Below the pieces are notes generated by a model, which saw only the letters and a program-made list of their open reading frames with translations, was not told where the DNA came from and did not search any database. This document shows positions 2,819-14,558 of a stretch of DNA of 64,000 nt, piece by piece. The DNA lies in NCBI GenBank assembly GCA_964421295.1, contig CAYQXM010000015.1, positions 769-64,768 of the forward strand. The letters are read 5' to 3'. This DNA is from an uncultured Pirellulales bacterium. Its GTDB lineage: Bacteria > Planctomycetota > Phycisphaerae > Sedimentisphaerales > Anaerobacaceae. Every line of letters starts with the position of its first letter. The stretch's first letter is position 1. The translations under genes were made by a program, and so were the position numbers.

Positions 2819-5380
<2,562 letters not shown>

Positions 5381-5530: not shown

Positions 5531-6301
5531 TTAGCTGGCCGACGCGGAGCGCCACCAGTGGGCGTGCTGCACCTCCAACTCGCGCAACGGCGGGTAGGGA
5601 TAGAACTTCAGACTCTGCTGGTCGCCCACGAAGAACCCCCGCCGGATGGTCCGGTAGAAGGCGTTCATCGCCGGGGTCCGATTGACCGTCTTGGTCGACT
5701 TGCCTCGGGCGTTCTTCACTTCATTGAGGCACGCCTTGATGTGCATCGGCTCGGTGTACGGCAGATACCCCGCCAAATTCCCCGCGTCATCCTGATCCAG
5801 CAAAAGGTCCGCAAAAAACAGCCGCGGCACACTTACCGCGTTGTTCGAATCCGTCATGAACCGGCAAAACGCCGACGGCGCCAGCGACGAGACCACCTGG
5901 GGCGACACCGGGCACAACTCCTGGTACATGTGCGGTCCCGCGACCTCGCCCCCGGCGTCGTAATCCGCCGCGTCGAGTCCCAGCGTCCTGCCGTCGGCCG
6001 TCGTCAGATACAGCTTGCCGATCACCGACGTGTCCACATGCTCCAGCACCCGGTAAATGCTGATATACTTGCTGCGTTTGGGACTGCCGTCGGGCCGGGG
6101 CACACAACGCGACTGGATGTCGCCGAGCCGGAAATAGTCGCTCTTCAGGCCCGGATCGACCTCGGCGAAGACGACATTCCCCCGACTCAACTTCTGTGTA
6201 CCCACTGCCATATAATGCCCAAACGCTTCTGGCTCCAAATGAGACGCGACTAATGCCTCCAACCGATAACAGAGCAAGTAGTAATGAATGTCCATTGCCA
6301 T
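5531..6301 (-). CDS. Conserved-looking hypothetical protein (256 aa); I recognise no domain
   Basis: ATG at 6301 is preceded by AGGAGG at 7-nt spacing. The amino-acid composition is non-shadow (MAMDIHYYLLCYRLEALV...). Confidence 0.6.
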   Translation of the reverse strand: MAMDIHYYLLCYRLEALVASHLEPEAFGHYMAVGTQKLSRGNVVFAEVDPGLKSDYFRLGDIQSRCVPRPDGSPKRSKYISIYRVLEHVDTSVIGKLYLTTADGRTLGLDAADYDAGGEVAGPHMYQELCPVSPQVVSSLAPSAFCRFMTDSNNAVSVPRLFFADLLLDQDDAGNLAGYLPYTEPMHIKACLNEVKNARGKSTKTVNRTPAMNAFYRTIRRGFFVGDQQSLKFYPYPPLRELEVQHAHWWRSASAS

Positions 6302-6552
6302 TGTCTAACCTCCTGCGGTCGGGCCGCGTATGCGAAGCTAACCTGCATTGCAGAAGACAATCGGAACGGAAAGAGGGTGATTGTATCTGCTTCACGGGGT
6401 CCAGTCAACATCGCTGTGGGTTTTTGCCGACCGCAAAATGCCGCGACCCAATCCCTGTCGCGGACCGTCGCGTCAACGAATTTTGATCCCACATCGGCCA
6501 TCCCGTCCGGTGACCTTCGCCCGCTTCCCGCCCGCACCCGAAAAACGCTCCC

Positions 6553-7719
6553 CTACGGCCCCGGACCCACACCCTCCAGCGGAGCTGGAGGAAATTCGAA
6601 GTACGAAGTTCGAAGCCCGACAACTCCGCCGCAGGCGGACGTCTGTTGCCCGGTGCCGTTCCGGAAACAATGACCAAAACCATAACTCCCCAATAACCAG
6701 AACGGCTCTGCCGCGTCCTGACGCCTCCGTATCTTGTCATGCTGAGCCCCTCGGCTTCGCTCGGGAAAGGCTGCGCGCAGTGAGGTCGAAACATCCGGCC
6801 CCGAACAAGCCATGTCTTGCACTCGCGACCACACGCCTCGACCGGGCTCGGAATGACGGAGAATCGGCGCTGAGTTGTGCTCTGTTTTGAGTTTTGGATT
6901 TCGGATCTTTGAATTTGTTTCGAATTTCGATATTCGGGTTTCGGATTTCAGCGGCCGGGTGGCAGCGGCAAACCCCGTTTGCCGATGGTGCCTCGATACA
7001 ACGGTCAACGTCGCACTCGCTCTGCTATGGGCACAAATCCGCCCTTCCAGCCGGACAATCCGTCCGGTCGCAGGGAAGTTAAGATAGGCAAATTCCCCGA
7101 ACAGCTCCCGGGCTTTTCCATCGTAGGCTTTGGCCGCTTCGATCTCGTCGTCGAACAGGCCGATGAACGTCTGCTGACCCCCCACACGAATACCCGCCTT
7201 CCACTTCCCGTCCTTGTTGCGATACACCCCTTTGAACCTCGACGTTCCCCCCACCGCCGGGCGGTTCCACGCATTCTGGGCCTTGTTGCAGAGCCGCAGA
7301 TTGCACCTGCGATAGTTCAGACTATTCCCGTCGTGGTGGTCTACAAACTTCCCCTCCGGCGGGTTCATGATCAGCCGGTGCATGTAAATGACCTTGTCCT
7401 TCCGCGAGAAACACGCATACGCCTTCCGTCCGGTCGTCGCATGCCACTTGAACCCACTGAGCCACTCATAATCGCTCGCATCGACAATCGCAAACAGCCC
7501 CCGCGTCAGCGGAATATACCGAATGTCGTCGCTGGGCGGCACCGGCGGCTCCAGCCGCAGCGGCGGTGTCGGTTTTGCCCGATAGCTGCGACACCCTTCT
7601 CCCGCCGCAACATAAGAAAGCCGCCCCTCAAACCCCGGCACACAAGCACAAACCAGCTCCCCCGCCCCGCCGTTCCGGATGGTTGTCGCATACACGCACT
7701 CGCCACATTGTCTCGCCAT
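6553..7719 (-). CDS. HNH endonuclease / AP2 DNA-binding domain protein with an anomalous ~170-codon 3' extension
   Basis: ATG at 7719 follows GGAGAGG. An HNH_3-like region (HRLIM...VDHHDGNSLNYRRCNLRLCNKAQN) is followed by an AP2 domain (SRFKGVYRNKDGKWKAGIRVGGQQTFIGLFDDEIEAAKAYD). After ~7074 the frame stays open through repeat-type DNA. Confidence 0.75.
   Translation of the reverse strand: MARQCGECVYATTIRNGGAGELVCACVPGFEGRLSYVAAGEGCRSYRAKPTPPLRLEPPVPPSDDIRYIPLTRGLFAIVDASDYEWLSGFKWHATTGRKAYACFSRKDKVIYMHRLIMNPPEGKFVDHHDGNSLNYRRCNLRLCNKAQNAWNRPAVGGTSRFKGVYRNKDGKWKAGIRVGGQQTFIGLFDDEIEAAKAYDGKARELFGEFAYLNFPATGRIVRLEGRICAHSRASATLTVVSRHHRQTGFAAATRPLKSETRISKFETNSKIRNPKLKTEHNSAPILRHSEPGRGVWSRVQDMACSGPDVSTSLRAAFPERSRGAQHDKIRRRQDAAEPFWLLGSYGFGHCFRNGTGQQTSACGGVVGLRTSYFEFPPAPLEGVGPGP
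6736..6856. repeat. MITE/REP-like element with terminal inverted repeats
   Basis: gtcatgctgagccc (6736-6749) pairs with gggctcggaatgac (6843-6856), 12/14 complementary. It lies inside the 3' tail of the HNH-AP2 ORF. Confidence 0.45.
6884..6953. repeat. Degenerate heptanucleotide tract (~10 units)
   Basis: gttttga gttttgg atttcgg atctttg aatttgt ttcgaat ttcgata ttcgggt ttcggat ttcagcg. A shorter tract, gaaattc gaagtac gaagttc gaagccc, lies at 6591-6618. Confidence 0.6.
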
Positions 7720-7757
7720 GATCGTCGCCTCTCCAAAGGCCCCAGGCTTCAGGCGTC

Positions 7758-7834
7758 AGACCTCAGGCCAACCGAGCTCAACTTCCTCTTTTTCAATCAT
7801 CAATTATCAATCGTCAATAATCAATGCGAGGGCC
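7758..7834. repeat. Degenerate heptanucleotide tract (~11 units in one phase)
   Basis: ttcaggc gtcagac ctcaggc caaccga gctcaac ttcctct ttttcaa tcatcaa ttatcaa tcgtcaa taatcaa. Confidence 0.65.
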
Positions 7835-7837
7835 ACC

Positions 7838-8565
7838 GTGGCCCTCTACAATGGGACGCCGCTAGCCTTATGTTGCTAGAATTCGTGCATTATTACTACA
7901 TCTGTAGAACCGTAAGTCCTTACCCCGTCTGCACTAGAAAAAATCCAAGAATTCTGGAAAAGTGCGCGCAGGACGCTAGCCTTATGTTGCGAAAAACCTA
8001 CGTAGTGCCGACAATTGTAGAGCGCTCCGCCGCGCCACGGAAACTGCGCAAAATGATACTCGGCGTATCACGACAGGCATCAGGCGGTAGGGAGGGGAGA
8101 ACAGGGATCGGGGATCAGGGGGCAGCTATTCAAATCCACCATTAAAACTCAAACATCACACCTCCAAGTCCAACTCAAAACTAAGGACTCAAAACTCAAC
8201 ACTCGGGCCCACCCGTGGGCCCGCCCCGCCTTATGTTGCGAAAAACCTACGTAGTGCCGACAATTGTAGAGCCCTGGGCCGGGCCATGAAGACTGCGCAA
8301 AATGATACCCGCCGTATCACGACAGGCATCGGACCTCAGGCTTCGGGCGTCAGGGTTCTCTCCTCCAACTCAAAACTAAGGACTCAAAACTCAACACTCG
8401 GGCCCACCCGTGGGCCCGCCCCGCCTTATGTTGCGAAAAATCTACGTAGTCACGACAATTGTAGAGGCATCCGCCGGGCCGCGAAAAATGCGCAAAGGGA
8501 TACATCGCATATCAGGGCGGGTTACAGGCTTAAGATCCTTGGCCAGAGGATGGTACCAACCCATT
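7838..8565. repeat. 3.5 tandem units (spacings 114, 249 and 195 bp) of a conserved core + hairpin + heptad module
   Basis: The core ccttatgttgcgaaaaacctacgtagtgccgacaattgtagagc starts at 7990, 8239 and 8434, with a diverged copy at 7876. GC hairpins lie at 7838-7856 (gagggccac/gtggccctc) and at 8215-8232 and 8410-8427 (gggcccac/gtgggccc). A second block, ctgcgcaaaatgatacNNNNNgtatcacgacaggcatc, carries hairpins at 8065-8079, 8314-8328 and 8509-8523. Confidence 0.8.
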
Positions 8566-8579
8566 CTGCGACTCTGCCG

Positions 8580-9212
8580 TCAGGTCACATTTTGGGCCCA
8601 TCCTGGCGGTGGCCATGCGCCACAGGTGGTCCCCAGCGCACCTGCGAGATCGCCCACACACTTCACCATCTTGCGGAAGGAACGGGAGAAAGTGTAGGCA
8701 GCAGCCAAGTCAAAACTCGCCGTTAGCGACGCTTGATCTGCGGTTTCGTGGTAGGATCGGTTCTTGGGCATGTATTCCTCCAATGCCTCCTTGGCACCGC
8801 GTCGTCCTTCGAAGTTCGCCATTGTGGCTGCGTCCGCGCGAATGCCACACTTCCCACGGAGAGACTCAATCGCTGCCAGGAACCAAGTCTCATATTCGCG
8901 ATAGGCCAAAACCGCGAAACAGGGCATGGCGCCCGCAACAGCCTGTGCCCATCCAAGGATCATTGGGGCAAGATCTTTCGGGCATGAGTCATCGGAGTCA
9001 AACAAAAGCAGAATGGAGGCACATTGCGGTTGAAGTAACGCAAGCCGGACAGCGGTTTGCACACCGGTTTGCGTATGGAGTTCAGACCTTTTTCTGCGAA
9101 TCGGCCTCGCGACGCCAATATCGAACAATCCCGCCTCAGTGAAGAGACGGCGAAGCAACACAGGCACAGCTTGGACATCGCCGTGCCCCTCCACAATCGG
9201 TTGGACGTTCAT
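8580..9212 (-). CDS. DUF4276-like small protein with TOPRIM-like acidic motifs
   Basis: N-terminus MNVQPIVEGHGDVQAVPVLLRRL, then LLLFDSDDSCP (a Glu ... DxD pattern). Its ATG overlaps the stop of the upstream ATPase gene by 4 nt (9209-9212). The family assignment is from memory only. Confidence 0.6.
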   Translation of the reverse strand: MNVQPIVEGHGDVQAVPVLLRRLFTEAGLFDIGVARPIRRKRSELHTQTGVQTAVRLALLQPQCASILLLFDSDDSCPKDLAPMILGWAQAVAGAMPCFAVLAYREYETWFLAAIESLRGKCGIRADAATMANFEGRRGAKEALEEYMPKNRSYHETADQASLTASFDLAAAYTFSRSFRKMVKCVGDLAGALGTTCGAWPPPGWAQNVT

Positions 9213-10405
9213 TCCAGTGCCTCAAAGAGACTCCCTTCTGCAAGTTCACGAGAGTCGCTGAAGAGCGGTGCCGGGTGCATTGCGTTGGATCGGAGCAACT
9301 CTCCCGCGCCCATCAGGTGTTGAGTCATTGCCTGCCGCGAAGCATCATCTGGTCGCAGAATGTGAGAAGCCCCTTCGTGCCAAACGACAATTCGTAAATG
9401 CTGATCCTCGATCCATTCAGCATCCAGTAGTTCGGGACTGTGTGTCGTGACAATAACCTGCATGGATCGACTGGCATGGCGAATCAAATCGAGAACGGCA
9501 CCTAAGGCACCCGGGTGGATTGTGGCCTCAGGTTCTTCGATAACAAGTACTGAGGGCCGAGGAGACTGAAATACAGCCATTAGAAGGCCTAATGCCCTGA
9601 GCGTGCCATCCGACATGTTGAACGCTTCGAACAACAGTTTCTTGCCGGACGCCCATTCTTGCGTGAACTCAAGCGACAGTTTGTTGCCATGTTTCTTGGG
9701 CTTCACGGATGTAGTGTTGGGCACAATCGACTCTAGAATCTCCTGAACTCTGTCTTTCGTCTTTGAATCGCTACGCCCGATCTCCTGGAGGACACTTGCT
9801 GCATTTCCACCGTCCCTCCGGAGAACAGAACCACTATCTGGGTCCTGCATCTCTCGTAATCTGGAGGGCTCGATGGAGTATACCCGCATAGCACTGAGTG
9901 CCTTTAGGAGAGGCGCAAAGCGTTCATCGCCACCAATGACTGGGAGGGTCAGGGCCGAAGCTTCTACCGAAGGCTTCAGACCCTCAGCGTTCGTCCGAAA
10001 TGACTTCTGGCGGTCGAACCACCATCGTATACCGTCCGCATAGCGAACCTGACATTGCTCTCTGACAACCTCGAACCCATATCCGGGGAGCGCCTTGACT
10101 TCAAACGCAAAACGCCCTCCTTTTACTCTGCCGTTCATCTCACCAAACTCAAAGGCTAATCCTAGGTTTGGGGGATAGCTGCGTCCAGAGCTCCGATTTC
10201 GAACCACAGAAATGCCGCCGCGTCTGTCAAAGACAGCTTGCAGGGGAGAGAGCATTGCTTCCGCCACGAAGCTGAACAAGTCCGCAAAATTGCTTTTGCC
10301 AGCACCGTTCCGCCCAACCAGGAAGACGGGATTGCTGAAATCAACAACGTCCGAAGGGAAACTCCGGAATCGCTTAACAATGACCCTCTTCACAACGCAT
10401 GTCAT
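9209..10405 (-). CDS. ABC/SMC-type ATPase (AAA_15/AAA_21-like)
   Basis: Walker A GRNGAGKSN, ABC signature-like MSDGTLRALGLL, Walker B VLVIEEPEATIHP and H-loop VTTHSP. Hand-sampled lines give 48-53% GC, lower than the neighbours. Confidence 0.8.
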   Translation of the reverse strand: MTCVVKRVIVKRFRSFPSDVVDFSNPVFLVGRNGAGKSNFADLFSFVAEAMLSPLQAVFDRRGGISVVRNRSSGRSYPPNLGLAFEFGEMNGRVKGGRFAFEVKALPGYGFEVVREQCQVRYADGIRWWFDRQKSFRTNAEGLKPSVEASALTLPVIGGDERFAPLLKALSAMRVYSIEPSRLREMQDPDSGSVLRRDGGNAASVLQEIGRSDSKTKDRVQEILESIVPNTTSVKPKKHGNKLSLEFTQEWASGKKLLFEAFNMSDGTLRALGLLMAVFQSPRPSVLVIEEPEATIHPGALGAVLDLIRHASRSMQVIVTTHSPELLDAEWIEDQHLRIVVWHEGASHILRPDDASRQAMTQHLMGAGELLRSNAMHPAPLFSDSRELAEGSLFEALE

Positions 10406-10632
10406 GTTTCACCTTAGCACAGCTAGGGGGTGCATGCCTAACAACGGTCTTCGTTTATTTATAGAATAGTGCCCTTGCGATAGAAAAGCCAGTGCCAGTG
10501 TAAGATGATTTCAATTCCCTCGTTCTGTGCTCCGCAAGAGGCGACAACGTGGGTCTGTCGTTATCTGTCCCAAGTCACGACGACGCCCGCAATTCGGCGA
10601 GAATCAAATCCCAAATCCGGAACGGGACGGTG

Positions 10633-11835
10633 TCAGGTATTTCTTTCTCGCGGGAAGAACGGTCTGATGTCGCCGTTGCCGATGAGGCTGTTCAGGATTG
10701 TGAAGTTGCCGGTCTCGTAGCGGATGCGACCGGCGGGGATGGCGGGGTTGATGTGGAGTTCTTCCGCGAACTTCTTCACCCTTGCAGGTTCGGGATTGGT
10801 GACCAGTCCGGCGGCACGCCAGAGTTTGCCGGGGATGAGCCCGTTGCGCGCCATTCGGTCCGCTTCCTGCTCCTGGATGGACAAGTCGGACACATTCAAG
10901 TCATCGAAGAAACTCTGATCTACACCGACGTGCAAGTGCTTCGCCACATGAGCGATCTCGTGCGCCAGCGTGAACCAGAAATTGTCCGATCGGTCAAATC
11001 TCAGCGTCAGGGCAATCAAGGGCTTCCCATCCGGCATGAGCATGGCCGCCCCGTCAAGATAGGTGTTGGGCAGGTGCGATTCGATGACAAGATAGATACC
11101 ACACTTACTGAGAAGTTCCTTCGCCAGCAATGGCCCCCGGTCAAAGTAACTCAGCTTCGCTATCTCACGAATCAAGTCCCGGCCGACGGAGTCGGGCTCG
11201 TAGTCACTGACACTCTGCGATCGAGCCAGGTGCATGACACGTAGCCGCCATGCCAAGAGCGCATACGTGTCGGTAGCTCCCCCTTGGCGCACATGCTGAC
11301 GCATGCGCGCCGGTATGAGAAGCTCATCGCCAAATGGCTGAATGAACGACCTCATGATCTTCTCCGCGCACGCCCTGGCTTCCCGCACGGTGCCCTTGAA
11401 ACTGATCCATTCCCGCTTCAGCATATCGGCAATCGGAAACCGATCCCACTCCAGGGTCTGCTCCGAGAGAGTCACGGCTTCGGGGTCGCCGATGAGCACT
11501 TCCGCCGGAATGCCCAGACCGCGATGCAGATTCCTGATCATAGACAGGCTGAGTTGACGCTTGCCGGCCAACACCTCGGACACTTTGCTGGCGCTCCCGA
11601 TGAACGGGATCAGATCCTTCTGGCGCAGTCTCTGCTGCTCCATACGGAATTTCAGGGCTTCCAGAGGATCAGGCATCTCAATAGGATAATGTTGCTCCTC
11701 ATATACCGAGACCAGCGTCGTCCACAAATCAAGCTCTTCGCCCTCGGGCGTATCGGGCTCGGCATCCATGAGCTGCGTGATGCGGGCCAGAGCCGTCTCA
11801 TACTCTGCTTCGGTATGGATCGTTTTGGGCTTCAT
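10633..11835 (-). CDS. higA: HigA-type HTH antitoxin fused to an ImmA/IrrE-family Zn-metallopeptidase domain
   Basis: HigA-like N-terminus and HTH (LRQKDLIPFIGSASKVSEVLAGKRQLSLSMIRNLHRGLGIP). C-terminal HExxH motif LAHEIAHVAKH. ATG at 11835 overlaps the higB TGA by 1 nt; the track start at 11838 is a TTG. Confidence 0.8.
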   Translation of the reverse strand: MKPKTIHTEAEYETALARITQLMDAEPDTPEGEELDLWTTLVSVYEEQHYPIEMPDPLEALKFRMEQQRLRQKDLIPFIGSASKVSEVLAGKRQLSLSMIRNLHRGLGIPAEVLIGDPEAVTLSEQTLEWDRFPIADMLKREWISFKGTVREARACAEKIMRSFIQPFGDELLIPARMRQHVRQGGATDTYALLAWRLRVMHLARSQSVSDYEPDSVGRDLIREIAKLSYFDRGPLLAKELLSKCGIYLVIESHLPNTYLDGAAMLMPDGKPLIALTLRFDRSDNFWFTLAHEIAHVAKHLHVGVDQSFFDDLNVSDLSIQEQEADRMARNGLIPGKLWRAAGLVTNPEPARVKKFAEELHINPAIPAGRIRYETGNFTILNSLIGNGDIRPFFPRERNT

Positions 11836-12128
11836 CAAACAGTCTCCACGTTGATTCTATCGTACTCCGTGTGAGTACCCATATAACGGACTTGTGCAAT
11901 GCCCAGGCCGTAGTTCAACTTCACCACGAGCCGGTATTTGTTGCCGCAGATGTTGAACACCACCCTGTTGCCTCCGACGATGCTCGCGCTGCCGAACTTG
12001 GCCTTCACCTCGTTGGGCGAATGCCATCGGGCATTCTTGACCTCTGCGTGCCACGCTCTCAGTGCTTGCTCGCAATCAGGATACTTCCTGCGAAACGCGT
12101 CCAAAACACTCTTGCCAACAAGCCGCAT
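11835..12128 (-). CDS. higB: HigB-family type II toxin (mRNA interferase)
   Basis: MRLVGKSVLDAFRRKYPDCEQALRAWHAEVKNARWHSPNEVKAKFGSASIVGGNRVVFNICGNKYRLVVKLNY is typical of the HigB toxin family. I prefer ATG at 12128 (AAGGGA upstream) over the longer track ORF. Confidence 0.8.
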   Translation of the reverse strand: MRLVGKSVLDAFRRKYPDCEQALRAWHAEVKNARWHSPNEVKAKFGSASIVGGNRVVFNICGNKYRLVVKLNYGLGIAQVRYMGTHTEYDRINVETV

Positions 12129-12143
12129 TTCATTATTCCCTTT

Positions 12144-12185
12144 TTGGGAACTCCTGTCAATAGAATATACATAATATTGGGAACT
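12144..12185 (-). promoter_or_regulatory. AT-rich promoter region flanked by direct repeats ttgggaact (candidate HigA operator)
   Basis: ttgggaact occurs at 12144-12152 and 12177-12185. The repeats bracket tcctgtcaatagaatatacataata; the minus strand carries TTGACA and AT-rich -10 candidates. Confidence 0.35.
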
Positions 12186-12469
12186 TTTGTTCGCTGCGGT
12201 TGCCGAAAACCACCGACCGTCAGTATGACATGTGTAACCTCCCGCAAATCCAAGACATACGAGAGCATCCCACAGCAATACCACTGCCGATCATCTGGCA
12301 GAGACTGAGGATTGCGAACAGTCCCCTACTTCCGGCCTTGATCGATTCCATGCCTCCAAAACCGTCGCGCTCAAACCATATGGACCATTGTAGAGAAGGG
12401 GCTTGTCGGAGGCAAAGGGAAAAGGGGAGAAGTGACAAGAGACAGGCAACATGAGTAACGGTCCAGCAG

Positions 12470-12796
12470 TCAGTGGCCGGCCTTCTCGTGGAGGCAATAA
12501 AACACGAGGATGGCGGCGGGGAGGAAGAGCAGGAGCCAACCCATCAATTTGACGGCCCAGCCGGGGGAAGTCGAGGAGACCAGTCCGCACTTGGCACCGA
12601 CCAGGCCCTCGCCCAATTCGTCGCCCCACCAGATGCACCCGATACTGAGCGCCAGCCAGAAGCCCGCGCCCAACAGACCCTCAAAGAGGTCCTTAGGAGA
12701 CATCGGCTCCGAGGAGGGGCCGGTCAGGAAACAGGCGACCGCGATCACCGCGTAGATAACCACCACCGCTAACGAAATCCACCGCGAGATATCCAT
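12470..12796 (-). CDS. Small integral membrane protein (3 predicted TM segments)
   Basis: MDISRWISLAVVVIYAVIAVACFL... Hydrophobic segments alternate with short loops. Confidence 0.5.
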   Translation of the reverse strand: MDISRWISLAVVVIYAVIAVACFLTGPSSEPMSPKDLFEGLLGAGFWLALSIGCIWWGDELGEGLVGAKCGLVSSTSPGWAVKLMGWLLLFLPAAILVFYCLHEKAGH

Positions 12797-13001
12797 ATCA
12801 GTGAGAAAGTGACAGTCACTTGTTCCGGTTCTTGGTCAATTCGGTGCCTCCAAGACCGCCATGCTCAATACCACCACCCCTATTGTAGCGGACGGGCCTG
12901 CGGGAGGCAATCTGTTCCTGCGCGTGCCAAAAGCACTTGACGTCGTCGGTGGACCATGGGACAATGTAGTCACATGATTGCTCTGTGTTGGAGGCTCGGA
13001 A

Positions 13002-13331: not shown

Positions 13332-13484
13332 CTCTCGCCTGGCGGAAGGTATCCGCGTCTGCGCTGCCACGCAGCTTCCCTTGACACCGCCGGATAAAAG
13401 GCCTACAATAGTCGTAAATTGCAGGTGGACGGTGGTCTGGCGGGAGCACTGTCGCAACGAAGCTTTCTAACGGGAGGATCGATC

Positions 13485-14558
13485 ATGCACATCGGGCTGG
13501 GCAGCGCACAGCGAGTGACAATCGTCGCCATTCTTCTTCTGGGTTCGGGCGCGGGGTGGGCGCAGACGGTCACCTCGGCCTCGTTCGGCAAGACGGCGGG
13601 CGGGGTGGACGTGACGTGTTACACGTTGACCAACGCACACGGCCTCAAGGCGAAGGTGATCGAGTATGGGGCCACGCTGATCGCGCTGGAGGTGCCCGAC
13701 CGCGACGGCAAGCTCGCCAATATCGTACGCGGCTACGATAATCTGGCCTCGTACGTCTCGAACGCCTGGGTCGGCTCGACCGTCGGGCGCTACGCCAATC
13801 GCATCGCCAACGCCAGATTCACGCTGGACGGCATCGAGTACCGCCTCACCGCCAACTCCGGGGGCCACCAGCTCCACGGCGGCAGCGTGAAGGGCTTCCA
13901 CAACGTCGTCTGGCACGGCTATCCCTACCAGACCGAGGCGGAGGCCGGCGTGCGCCTGACGCACGAGAGTCTCGACGGCGAAGAGGGCTACCCGGGCAAC
14001 CTCACCGTCACGGTGACTTACGCGCTGACCAACGACAACGAGCTGCGTATCGACTACGGCGCCACGACGGACAAGCCCACCGTCATCAACCTGACGAACC
14101 ACAGCTACTTCAATCTCGCCGGCTACGGCACGGGTGACATCCTCGCCCACGAGATCATGATCAACGCCAACTGGTACACCGCCGCGTCGGCGGACAAGAT
14201 CCCGACGGGCGAGATCCTCACCGTCAGCGGCGGGCTGGATCTCCGCACGCCGCGGCTCGTCGGTTCCGTGATCTCGAGCGTGAATCGGGAGCAGCAGTAC
14301 GACCACAACTACGTCCTGAACCGCACGTACGGCGCGTTGGTCCTCGCGGCGAGCGCCTACGATGGGAAGAGCGGACGGCTGATGGAGTGCTACACCGATC
14401 AGCCGGGGATGCAGTTCTATACGGGCGACAAGTCGGCCTTCTGCTTCGAGACGCAGCACTTCCCCGATTCCCCGAACAAGCCGCACTTCCCCTCGACCGA
14501 GCTGCGTCCCGGCGGCAAGTTCGAAAGCACCACCGTCTGCAAGTTCTCCACGAAATAG
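13485..14558 (+). CDS. galM: Aldose 1-epimerase (galactose mutarotase), secreted
   Basis: Signal peptide MHIGLGSAQRVTIVAILLLGSGAGWAQT. Mutarotase motifs GRYANRIANARFTLDG..Y.L..N.G.HQLHGG and INLTNHSYFNL. ATG at 13485 follows GGGAGGA. Confidence 0.88.
   Translation: MHIGLGSAQRVTIVAILLLGSGAGWAQTVTSASFGKTAGGVDVTCYTLTNAHGLKAKVIEYGATLIALEVPDRDGKLANIVRGYDNLASYVSNAWVGSTVGRYANRIANARFTLDGIEYRLTANSGGHQLHGGSVKGFHNVVWHGYPYQTEAEAGVRLTHESLDGEEGYPGNLTVTVTYALTNDNELRIDYGATTDKPTVINLTNHSYFNLAGYGTGDILAHEIMINANWYTAASADKIPTGEILTVSGGLDLRTPRLVGSVISSVNREQQYDHNYVLNRTYGALVLAASAYDGKSGRLMECYTDQPGMQFYTGDKSAFCFETQHFPDSPNKPHFPSTELRPGGKFESTTVCKFSTK

Follow-up and report, generated by a model that had tools for sequence, protein, structure and literature searches.

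A stand-alone HEC-01-type ABC ATPase and DUF4276 gene pair from an uncultured Pirellulales bacterium

Two adjoining genes at positions 8580 to 10405 of the analysed DNA of an uncultured Pirellulales bacterium (64,000 nucleotides, referred to here as the window) form a further member of HEC-01, a catalogued family of candidate anti-phage systems, and do not represent a new kind of system. The pair is probably a two-gene HEC-01-type module that is complete in itself, in which a compact ABC ATPase is combined with a DUF4276 protein, one half of which would be a TOPRIM-like, metal-dependent nuclease. HEC-01 stands for Hma-embedded candidate 01 in PADLOC-DB v2 and was described as an ABC ATPase with a TOPRIM protein that has a metal-binding site in common with BpOLD (Payne et al., bioRxiv 10.1101/2024.01.29.577857). 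In the same work, HEC-01 gave E. coli MG1655 no protection against any phage tested, whereas in a later study E. coli B gained some protection from one stand-alone HEC-01 homologue, against at least one of the phages T4, T5 and T7. The defence function of the family is thus that of a candidate. The preliminary description of this locus, which was based on sequence alone, was largely right about what the two proteins are, but since the family is already catalogued as HEC-01, the pair is no new kind. Its view that the small partner is functionally uncharacterised has to be corrected as well, as the protein is catalogued as HEC-01B and phage tests have been published, with conflicting results.

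The gene pair and its surroundings

The ATPase gene is an ORF of 398 aa on the minus strand (9209..10405) and is followed by the DUF4276 gene, an ORF of 210 aa on the same strand (8580..9212). As read from the sequence, the two share the bases ATGA (9209..9212, minus strand), and since the ATPase stop codon and the DUF4276 start codon in this way overlap, translational coupling is suggested by these 4 nt. Both the protein sizes and the overlap agree with what had been proposed at the outset. A Shine-Dalgarno-like AAGGTG, recognised by its resemblance to the consensus only, is positioned 4 nt 5' of the ATPase start codon (10410..10415, minus strand), where the minus strand reads CTAAGGTGAAACATG.

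Assignment to HEC-01 follows from the PADLOC models, which were both matched over their full length. Residues 3-381 of the ATPase align with positions 7-385 of the 399 in the HEC-01A model (PDLC04178; 1e-109, 365 bits), and residues 1-188 of the small protein with positions 1-190 of the 197 in the HEC-01B model (PDLC04196; 1.7e-58). The two matches adjoin each other on the minus strand with the 4-nt overlap, and the gene order, with the ABC ATPase first and the TOPRIM-like protein second, is that of HEC-01.

The association of the two genes is strictly conserved and they are inherited jointly. Both family assignments lie well outside chance: searches returned 3810 relatives of the ATPase at E ≤ 1e-10, and for the small protein 1867 at E ≤ 0.001 as well as 2090 clusters formed at 50% identity. 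An ATPase is encoded as a separate gene directly upstream, on the same strand, in 79 of 80 related loci, in 60 of these 79 the 4-nt overlap is kept (as ATGA or GTGA), and the identities of the A and B proteins to the proteins from the window are correlated (r=0.79). Recognisable defence genes are immediate neighbours in a minority of the related loci only. The proposed co-occurrence with defence functions was found in part: the pair is occasionally embedded in Hma loci and adjoins a type III restriction enzyme in L020, and the enrichment is weak. Carriage by phages was considered and rejected, as a pattern scan revealed no relatives on IMG/VR viral contigs and the small protein has no PHROG match.

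In the window, the pair stands alone, outside any Hma context, in a small islet of low GC content beside a defence-type module. The GC fraction is 0.53-0.58 over approximately 6000-13000, as compared to 0.60-0.68 in the flanks, in agreement with the lower GC noted earlier. The neighbouring module had been taken for HigBA; a HigB-like gene is indeed present, but the two genes are really a PD-lambda-2 A/B-like pair (10633..12128, minus strand; PADLOC and Pfam), which lies outside the pair under study. The HigB-like gene (11835..12128, minus strand) encodes 97 aa when read from M53 of its ORF and matches PD-Lambda-2_A (3.8e-36), Pfam HigB_toxin and, over positions 1-97 of 97, phrog_5734. The second gene (10633..11838, minus strand) encodes a 401-aa protein with an Xre-type HTH and an M78 peptidase domain (PD-Lambda-2_B, 7.2e-143; Pfam Peptidase_M78). 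Between this module and the downstream ATPase gene on the same strand there is a gap of 227 nt. On the other side, the repeat array and the HNH gene that had been reported nearby were recovered as a three-copy repeat (7835-8555) and an HNH_3+AP2 gene (6553..7719; Pfam). The neighbours on both sides are the PD-lambda-2 A/B-like pair, the HNH-AP2 gene and housekeeping genes; no methylase, helicase or Hma gene was detected among the neighbours scanned. The repeats were discarded as a conserved RNA partner in the module, as they gave no Rfam match, were absent from all 85 fetched loci and received weak consensus-fold support. A conserved link of the pair to the HigB-like/Xre-M78 genes or to the HNH-AP2 gene was likewise dismissed, there being no homologues of these in 80 related loci.

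The ATPase and the DUF4276 protein

The large protein, an ABC ATPase of the AAA_21/SMC type, falls in the Rad50/SMC/OLD-like clade. It matches the Pfam families AAA_21 (3.1e-32), AAA_15 (3.3e-15) and SMC_N (3.3e-13), and the best Foldseek matches of its AF2 model (pLDDT 79.1, pTM 0.80) in the PDB are the ABC heads of Rad50, SMC and PtuA proteins (E about 1e-10, probability 1.00). The motifs quoted in the preliminary description, here and in the small protein, are all present. In the ATPase these are GRNGAGKSN (31-39), of which residues 31-38 form the Walker A motif GRNGAGKS, MSDGTLRAL (264-272) with the signature-like MSDGT (264-268), VLVIEEPEATIHP (286-298), which includes the Walker B motif and catalytic Glu (VLVIEE, 286-291), and VTTHSP (319-324) with the H-loop residue H322. 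Q187 is a candidate for the Q-loop. The motif residues are invariant or nearly so in 39 homologues.

The small protein matches Pfam DUF4276 at 1.3e-11 with 45.5 bits, above the cutoff of 30.2. Of the profile matches proposed at the start, AAA_21, AAA_15 and DUF4276 were all obtained, and DUF4435 and OLD-like_TOPRIM were not matched by the small protein. The protein carries IVEGHGD (6-12) and DSDD (72-75), with 64 residues separating E8 from D72. Its AF2 model (pLDDT 88.8, pTM 0.86) has alternating strands and helices in beta-alpha repeats, with E8 and G9 at the end of strand 1 (residues 2-8), D72-S-D74-D75 directly after the third long strand (64-71), and E106 and E108 after the next strand. 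D72 does not vary among 127 representatives of the family, and conservation reaches at least 90% at E8, G9, E106 and E108; D74 and D75 belong to the same invariant or nearly invariant pattern. The N-terminal half (approximately 1-115) can accordingly be described as a TOPRIM-like alpha/beta domain with E8-G9, D72-x-D74-D75 and E106/E108. Helices make up the C-terminal half, which contains the conserved motifs RSFRK (177-181) and WPPxxW (200-205). In the Menshen study (PMC12065111), DUF4276 and RloB are both assigned to the Toprim superfamily, DUF4276 with the E and DxD residues.

The fold searches that were run here weakly indicate a TOPRIM fold for the modelled small protein. The best match among the viral models in BFVD is an RloB-like protein (E 6.8e-4, TM 0.50), and primases are found further down the list. 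Members of the family gave weak matches to DUF3226 (24 of 127, best 2.8e-4), RloB (15 of 127, best 0.0025) and, in a single case out of 127, OLD-like_TOPRIM (0.046). A Foldseek search of the model against the PDB yielded nothing at E ≤ 1e-3, and its top matches (lumazine synthase, a PIWI MID domain and LacI-type folds) do not directly confirm TOPRIM because they are generic alpha/beta folds. The fold check proposed earlier thus returned a weak RloB-like match in BFVD but no TOPRIM match in the PDB. With the family HMM profiles A1 and A3, neither a TOPRIM protein nor a solved structure of a member of the subfamily was detected among the PDB sequences, the matches being a spurious designed repeat protein and two odorant-binding proteins that were not significant (E 0.49). 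The DUF4276 profile was also compared with the YbjD OLD nuclease. Against the C-terminus of E. coli YbjD as a single sequence the probability was 1.8%, and against an alignment of 31 YbjD OLD TOPRIM sequences hhalign gave 5.9% with the motifs unaligned, which is a weak negative because both profiles are low in diversity.

Related systems and rival explanations

The combination of an ABC ATPase with a DUF4276 protein carrying the Glu and DxD residues, which follows the logic of OLD, Gabija and PARIS, was correctly recognised from the start; it is borne out by the HEC-01A and HEC-01B matches and by the Payne, Menshen and PARIS papers. The locus had also been called a split OLD/PARIS-like candidate, and here the logic holds whereas membership does not, as there is no DUF4435 or AriB match and the small protein has no OLD-like_TOPRIM match. 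PARIS resembles the pair in that two genes encode an ABC ATPase (AAA_15/21) and, as a protein of its own, a small effector of the TOPRIM type, but its effector AriB is a DUF4435 protein; the small DUF4276 protein matched neither DUF4435 (Pfam) nor AriB (PADLOC) at E ≤ 1. The ATPase, with 398 aa, is smaller than the 55-kDa AriA and matches the AriA models at 2.3e-31 and 2.2e-16, as compared to 1e-109 for HEC-01A, and the better of the AriA models covers the same span of the ATPase as the generic AAA_21 domain. Moreover, PARIS is often carried by phages or satellites, unlike the relatives of the pair in the IMG/VR pattern scan, and cleavage of tRNA-Lys and sensing of Ocr are features of PARIS. 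The OLD family, including Gabija GajA and E. coli YbjD, shares the combination of an ABC ATPase with a TOPRIM-type nuclease that has the Glu and DxD residues, and the C-terminal region of the ATPase weakly matched the models for Old, GajA and DUF2813. In OLD proteins, however, both domains are part of one chain, whereas here they belong to two ORFs that a stop codon separates, and Gabija requires the UvrD-like helicase GajB, no helicase being present among the neighbours scanned. Membership of PARIS, OLD or Gabija is thus ruled out by effector family and domain architecture.

The methylation-associated defence system MADS of P. aeruginosa, an 8-gene operon, is similar in arrangement, as its Mad3 and Mad4 are an AAA_21-type ATPase and a DUF4276-type protein encoded side by side. 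Mad4 is a DUF4276 homologue according to the Menshen study (PMC12065111), and the PARIS paper lists MADS3-4 among the pairs of ABC ATPases and TOPRIM proteins. Assignment to MADS was rejected, since the ATPase reaches 98.7 bits where the cutoff for the NCBIfam MAD3 equivalog is 420. With PADLOC it matches mad3 at 9e-23 as compared to 1e-109 for HEC-01A, mad4 is absent from all six PADLOC matches of the small protein, and none of the other mad genes, including the mandatory mad6-8 and the methylase, occurs among the neighbours scanned. In the Menshen system, whose NsnC has DUF4276 effector domains, DUF4276 and RloB domains are described as effectors of the Toprim superfamily (PMC12065111), but the window offers no NsnA or NsnC context and the match of the ATPase to NsnB is only 1.6e-20. 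RloB-like proteins are the nearest relatives of the small protein in fold among those found here, and after DUF3226 the nearest family in sequence, but RloB usually occurs within type I restriction loci (PMC12065111), which does not apply to the pair.

The connection with methylation-based systems (Hma, MADS, type I/III restriction-like) raises the question whether the pair is a non-autonomous nuclease/ATPase sub-module of such systems, the copy in the window then being an orphan with little or no activity by itself. We regard this as unlikely. It would be in line with the lack of defence by HEC-01 alone in E. coli and with the situation in MADS, where Mad3 and Mad4 act inside the 8-gene operon, mad3 and mad4 are each required for defence, and the mad5 methylase can be deleted only together with mad2 or mad3, its loss being lethal otherwise. 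This rescue from methylase loss suggests a restriction-like role for mad3. Close homologues of the pair are located between HmaB and HmaC in at least four loci (L001, L022, L045 and L057), and the copy in the window has no methylase or helicase among the neighbours scanned. Of 55 loci surveyed, however, only about 5 show such embedding in Hma, and the nearest relatives (88% and 80% identity) stand by themselves at another site, flanked by housekeeping genes, with the DUF4276 gene intact in both of the contigs that carry it. All catalytic motifs are intact in the window as well, a stand-alone HEC-01 cluster was somewhat protective in the later study, and the score of the ATPase is far from the MAD3 cutoff.

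A function outside immunity, either as a selfish, addiction-type module that stabilises its own DNA or as a DNA repair or maintenance factor of the Rad50/RecF/OLD type, appears quite unlikely. In its favour, mobile selfish modules typically show a patchy distribution across many phyla and a low local GC content, as the pair does. Rad50 and SMC heads are the closest structural matches of the ATPase, defence genes are weakly enriched among the neighbours, and the first phage screen of HEC-01 was negative. Against this stand the repeated embedding of the pair, in the same orientation, inside defence operons, the requirement of the homologous Mad3 and Mad4 for phage resistance, the one positive phage assay of HEC-01, and the fact that all pairings of an AAA_15/21 ATPase with a TOPRIM protein that have been characterised to date are defence systems. 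Very improbable, finally, is a four-gene composite in which the pair replaces the missing third component of PD-lambda-2 and acts with the upstream HigB-like and Xre-M78 genes. The shared strand and the short gap would fit, and PD-lambda-2 needs a third gene for defence, of which no ORF is present at the locus. No sigma-70-like promoter was found in the gap and a strong one is found upstream of the HigB-like gene, but the scan covered one promoter type and its sites were no more than expected by chance. In the 80 related loci, homologues of the HigB-like and Xre-M78 genes are absent from the surrounding 10 kb, the pair by itself is the conserved unit, and PD-Lambda-2_C is found neither among all six PADLOC matches of the small protein nor among the best 25 of the 127 PADLOC matches of the ATPase.

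Possible mode of action and significance

For a self-contained HEC-01-type module, a mode of action can be envisaged by analogy with PARIS, OLD/Gabija and MADS. In PARIS, the AAA_15/21 ATPase sequesters the TOPRIM effector and releases it upon sensing a phage protein. Similarly, the ATPase of the pair would form an ATP-dependent oligomer that binds the nuclease, keeps it inactive and senses infection; a phage cue would then release or activate the nuclease, leading to cutting of nucleic acid, and this could halt phage replication or host translation. Published accounts that we found report no substrate or trigger for this DUF4276 subfamily. As a rough split, we would give about half of the weight to DNA as the substrate (as in OLD/Gabija, and fitting the genetics of MADS), about one third to tRNA or other RNA (as in PARIS), and the rest to something else. 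It is conceivable, but rather doubtful, that DUF4276 is a TOPRIM effector with a substrate and release mechanism of its own, for example as a second PARIS-like system, possibly wired to the HigB-like/Xre-M78 pair. In such a PARIS-like system, a compact ATPase would sense a phage protein and set free a nuclease whose target is a specific tRNA or some other RNA.

The main practical value of the copy in the window lies in its correct annotation, as an HEC-01-type candidate that adjoins a PD-lambda-2 A/B-like pair. It adds one stand-alone example, which judging by its closest relative probably comes from a Planctomycetota-like metagenome-assembled genome, and nothing new in kind to a family that is very widespread and for which the data on phage protection are conflicting. 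With a conserved pair, a conserved overlap and invariant acidic residues, the family is a fair target for biochemical work on the control that ABC ATPases exert over TOPRIM nucleases.

Gene pair and family assignment

The minus strand of the window carries an ABC ATPase gene (9209..10405, 398 aa) followed by a gene for a small protein (8580..9212, 210 aa), both with an ATG start. Four bases common to both open reading frames (9209-9212) read ATGA on that strand, so that the ATPase stop codon overlaps the start codon of the small-protein gene, which suggests translational coupling. A Shine-Dalgarno-like AAGGTG lies 4 nt 5' of the ATPase start codon. The preliminary description had reported these frames, their overlap and a set of motifs, all of which were recovered: GRNGAGKSN (31-39), MSDGTLRAL (264-272), VLVIEEPEATIHP (286-298) and VTTHSP (319-324) in the ATPase, and IVEGHGD (6-12) and DSDD (72-75) in the small protein.

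In Pfam, the ATPase matches AAA_21 (3.1e-32, full model) and AAA_15, two families named beforehand as candidates, as well as SMC_N. Its AF2 model (pLDDT 79, pTM 0.80) most resembles ABC heads, namely those of Rad50, SMC and PtuA (E about 1e-10); across 39 homologues, no or almost no variation is seen in the Walker A motif, Q187, the signature-like MSDGT, Walker B IEE or H322. In PADLOC-DB, the HEC-01A model PDLC04178 covers residues 3-381 (1e-109), with weaker matches to AriA (2.3e-31), mad3 (9e-23), AbiLi (1.5e-21), the Menshen protein NsnB (1.6e-20), Old (6e-17) and GajA (1e-11). The small protein matches the HEC-01B model PDLC04196 over residues 1-188 (1.7e-58) and DUF4276 in Pfam (1.3e-11; 45.5 bits vs a cutoff of 30.2), the latter as anticipated; NCBIfam gave no match for it.

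Since each protein matches its model and the genes sit side by side in the same orientation, the pair can be classified as a member of HEC-01 (Hma-embedded candidate 01; Payne et al., bioRxiv 10.1101/2024.01.29.577857), which supports the earlier reading as an ABC ATPase with a TOPRIM-like partner. The description of that partner as uncharacterised is out of date insofar as the family is already catalogued, although its mechanism is still uncharacterised. By analogy, the pair probably works like PARIS, OLD and MADS3-4, yet it belongs to none of them. PARIS is ruled out by the effector family, which is AriB there and DUF4276 here. OLD and Gabija are fused proteins, whereas the window has two separate genes, and Gabija moreover requires a helicase partner. 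Membership of MADS is ruled out since the ATPase misses the cutoff of the NCBIfam MAD3 equivalog (98.7 vs 420 bits) and no other mad gene lies among the neighbours scanned.

TOPRIM-like character of the small protein

The classic TOPRIM signature consists of hhhVEGxxD/E and, later, hhhhDxDD, and the motifs of the small protein follow this pattern with a spacing of about 64 residues; E. coli YbjD carries LLVEGETE and VLVDGDEAG. AF2 gave a confident model (pLDDT 88.8, pTM 0.86), with strands and helices that alternate at first (E2-8, H15-26, E38-40, H48-59, E64-71, H82-93, E98-102, H106-113) and a helical C-terminal half. In this model, E8-G9 form the end of the first strand, D72-x-D74-D75 come after strand 64-71, and E106 and E108 after strand 98-102. 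Among 127 representatives of 35-54% identity, D72 is invariant and conservation reaches at least 90% at E8, G9, C77, E106, E108 and W110. Thus, the Glu...DxD pattern noticed at the outset is present and conserved, while the fold comparison is weak: Foldseek against the PDB returned nothing at E<=1e-3, only generic alpha/beta folds. In a viral structure library, the best match was an RloB-like protein (E 6.8e-4, TM 0.50, full length), and DNA primases also matched, with weak E-values, across about 110 columns. With family profiles, no real match was found among PDB sequences, a comparison by hhalign with a YbjD-type OLD TOPRIM profile stayed below significance (5.9% probability), and weak matches among the 127 representatives were to DUF3226 (24), RloB (15) and OLD-like_TOPRIM (1). 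Our own fold and profile tests are therefore only weakly confirmatory. The literature is more definite, and the small protein is accepted as TOPRIM-like: HEC-01B is structurally similar to TOPRIM proteins and shares a metal-binding site with BpOLD (Payne et al.), and the Menshen study (PMC12065111) places DUF4276 and RloB in the Toprim superfamily, with the Glu and DxD residues kept, and identifies Mad4 as a DUF4276 homologue.

Relatives and genomic surroundings

The family is large, with 1867 small-protein relatives at E<=0.001 in a word-indexed search, 2090 clusters at 50% identity in an exhaustive one, and 3810 ATPase relatives at E<=1e-10. Eighty related loci (41-70% identity) were fetched from species-representative genomes of Acidobacteriota, Elusimicrobia, Planctomycetota, Verrucomicrobiota, Chloroflexota, Pseudomonadota, Latescibacterota, Spirochaetes, Nitrospirales, Mycobacterium and others. 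The small-protein gene directly follows the ATPase gene, on the same strand, in 79 of these; in the remaining locus, a contig end cuts off the position. A 4-nt overlap as in the window recurs in 60 of the 79. Identities of the two proteins to their window counterparts are correlated (r=0.79, n=73). The two genes act as one unit.

Immediate neighbours in 55 loci included matches to HmaB (5), HmaC (5), mad2 (6) and DrmD/SNF2 helicases (4) and Pfam matches to DUF499 (5) and DUF1156 (4). In a per-locus check, HmaB and HmaC lay on either side of the pair in L001 (the closest species-representative relative), L022, L045 and L057, exactly the published 'Hma-embedded' pattern. In a Verrucomicrobia MAG (L020, 5787-16062), the flanking genes encode a DrmD/HmaA-like SNF2 helicase (4.5e-205) on one side and, on the other, a type III restriction enzyme (3.8e-199), so that the pair also occurs embedded in restriction-type operons that are not Hma. 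The majority of related loci are not embedded; the closest relatives (ATPase 88%, small protein 80% identity) stand alone among housekeeping genes at a different site. A Planctomycetes MAG, the closest relative at NCBI (L081, 11197-12016; ATPase 88%), has no gene called after the ATPase, which may reflect a pseudogene or a gene-calling gap; a near-identical JGI contig (L082) has an intact DUF4276 gene there. A pattern scan of IMG/VR viral contigs found no relative, and the small protein had no match in PHROGs.

In the window, the pair lies inside about 7 kb of lower GC (0.53-0.58 vs 0.60-0.68) bordered by genes for an H+-pyrophosphatase (2819..5380) and an aldose epimerase (13419..14558). The lower GC, a repeat array and an HNH gene had been pointed out before, and all three are there. 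The repeats, downstream of the pair, comprise three copies of 110-195 nt (7835-8555); their core GCCTTATGTTGCGAAAAACCTACGTAGT occurs exactly twice and a third time with one mismatch, and a GGGCCCACCCGTGGGCCC hairpin is present in copies 2 and 3. The repeats have weak consensus-fold support, no Rfam match and no copy among 85 fetched loci. Beyond them, a minus-strand HNH_3 and AP2 frame of 388 aa (6553-7719) gave matches to HNH endonuclease families of phages (phrog_99, 1.4e-37) and none in PADLOC; it is probably a homing-endonuclease-like gene or phage remnant in the same islet. At the left edge, a minus-strand 256-aa frame (5531-6301) has no match in Pfam, PADLOC or PHROGs.

Upstream, on the minus strand (10633-12128), the adjacent module first taken for HigBA does contain a HigB-like gene (97 aa; PD-Lambda-2_A, 3.8e-36), and its partner encodes an Xre-HTH and M78 peptidase protein (401 aa; PD-Lambda-2_B, 7.2e-143, full length), which makes it a PD-lambda-2 A/B-like pair. 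PD-lambda-2, discovered by experiment, has three genes, and its defence in E. coli needs the third, which is absent beside this A/B-like pair. Since homologues of these neighbours occur in none of the 80 related loci, the adjacency looks like island clustering rather than a conserved composite. The 227-nt gap before the ATPase gene showed no sigma-70-like promoter in a scan that is itself weak evidence. Family matches to the HigB-like frame, listed with 149 aa and a GTG start, begin at residue 53; the frame is thus probably overextended, with its start at 12128. A near-consensus promoter-like site (12132-12160, minus strand; TTGACA, 17 nt, AATAAT; 11/12 matches) ends 4 nt before this likely start codon, so that the transcript may be leaderless or have a very short leader.

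Phage evidence and putative mechanism

Direct phage evidence for the HEC-01 family is conflicting: Payne et al. saw no phage protection by HEC-01 in E. coli MG1655, and one homologue protected E. coli B against one or more of T4, T5 and T7. PARIS is the best-understood analogue for the mechanism. There, six AriA hold three AriB; when a foreign protein is detected, in an ATP-dependent step, AriB is set free, forms a dimer and cleaves tRNA-Lys. For the nearest named relatives, those of MADS, genetics suggests DNA-level action: neither mad3 nor mad4 is dispensable, and cells that lose the mad5 methylase survive only when mad2 or mad3 has been lost as well. tRNA-Lys cutting by PARIS and the DNA-level genetics of MADS point to different substrates, and for the DUF4276 protein we lean slightly towards DNA. 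By analogy, the ATPase would sense and regulate in an ATP-dependent manner, with the DUF4276 protein as nuclease effector. Both the ABC ATPase and the TOPRIM-type acidic site of the pair are intact; the two genes are inherited together, pass between phyla and in some loci lie within methylation-based defence operons.
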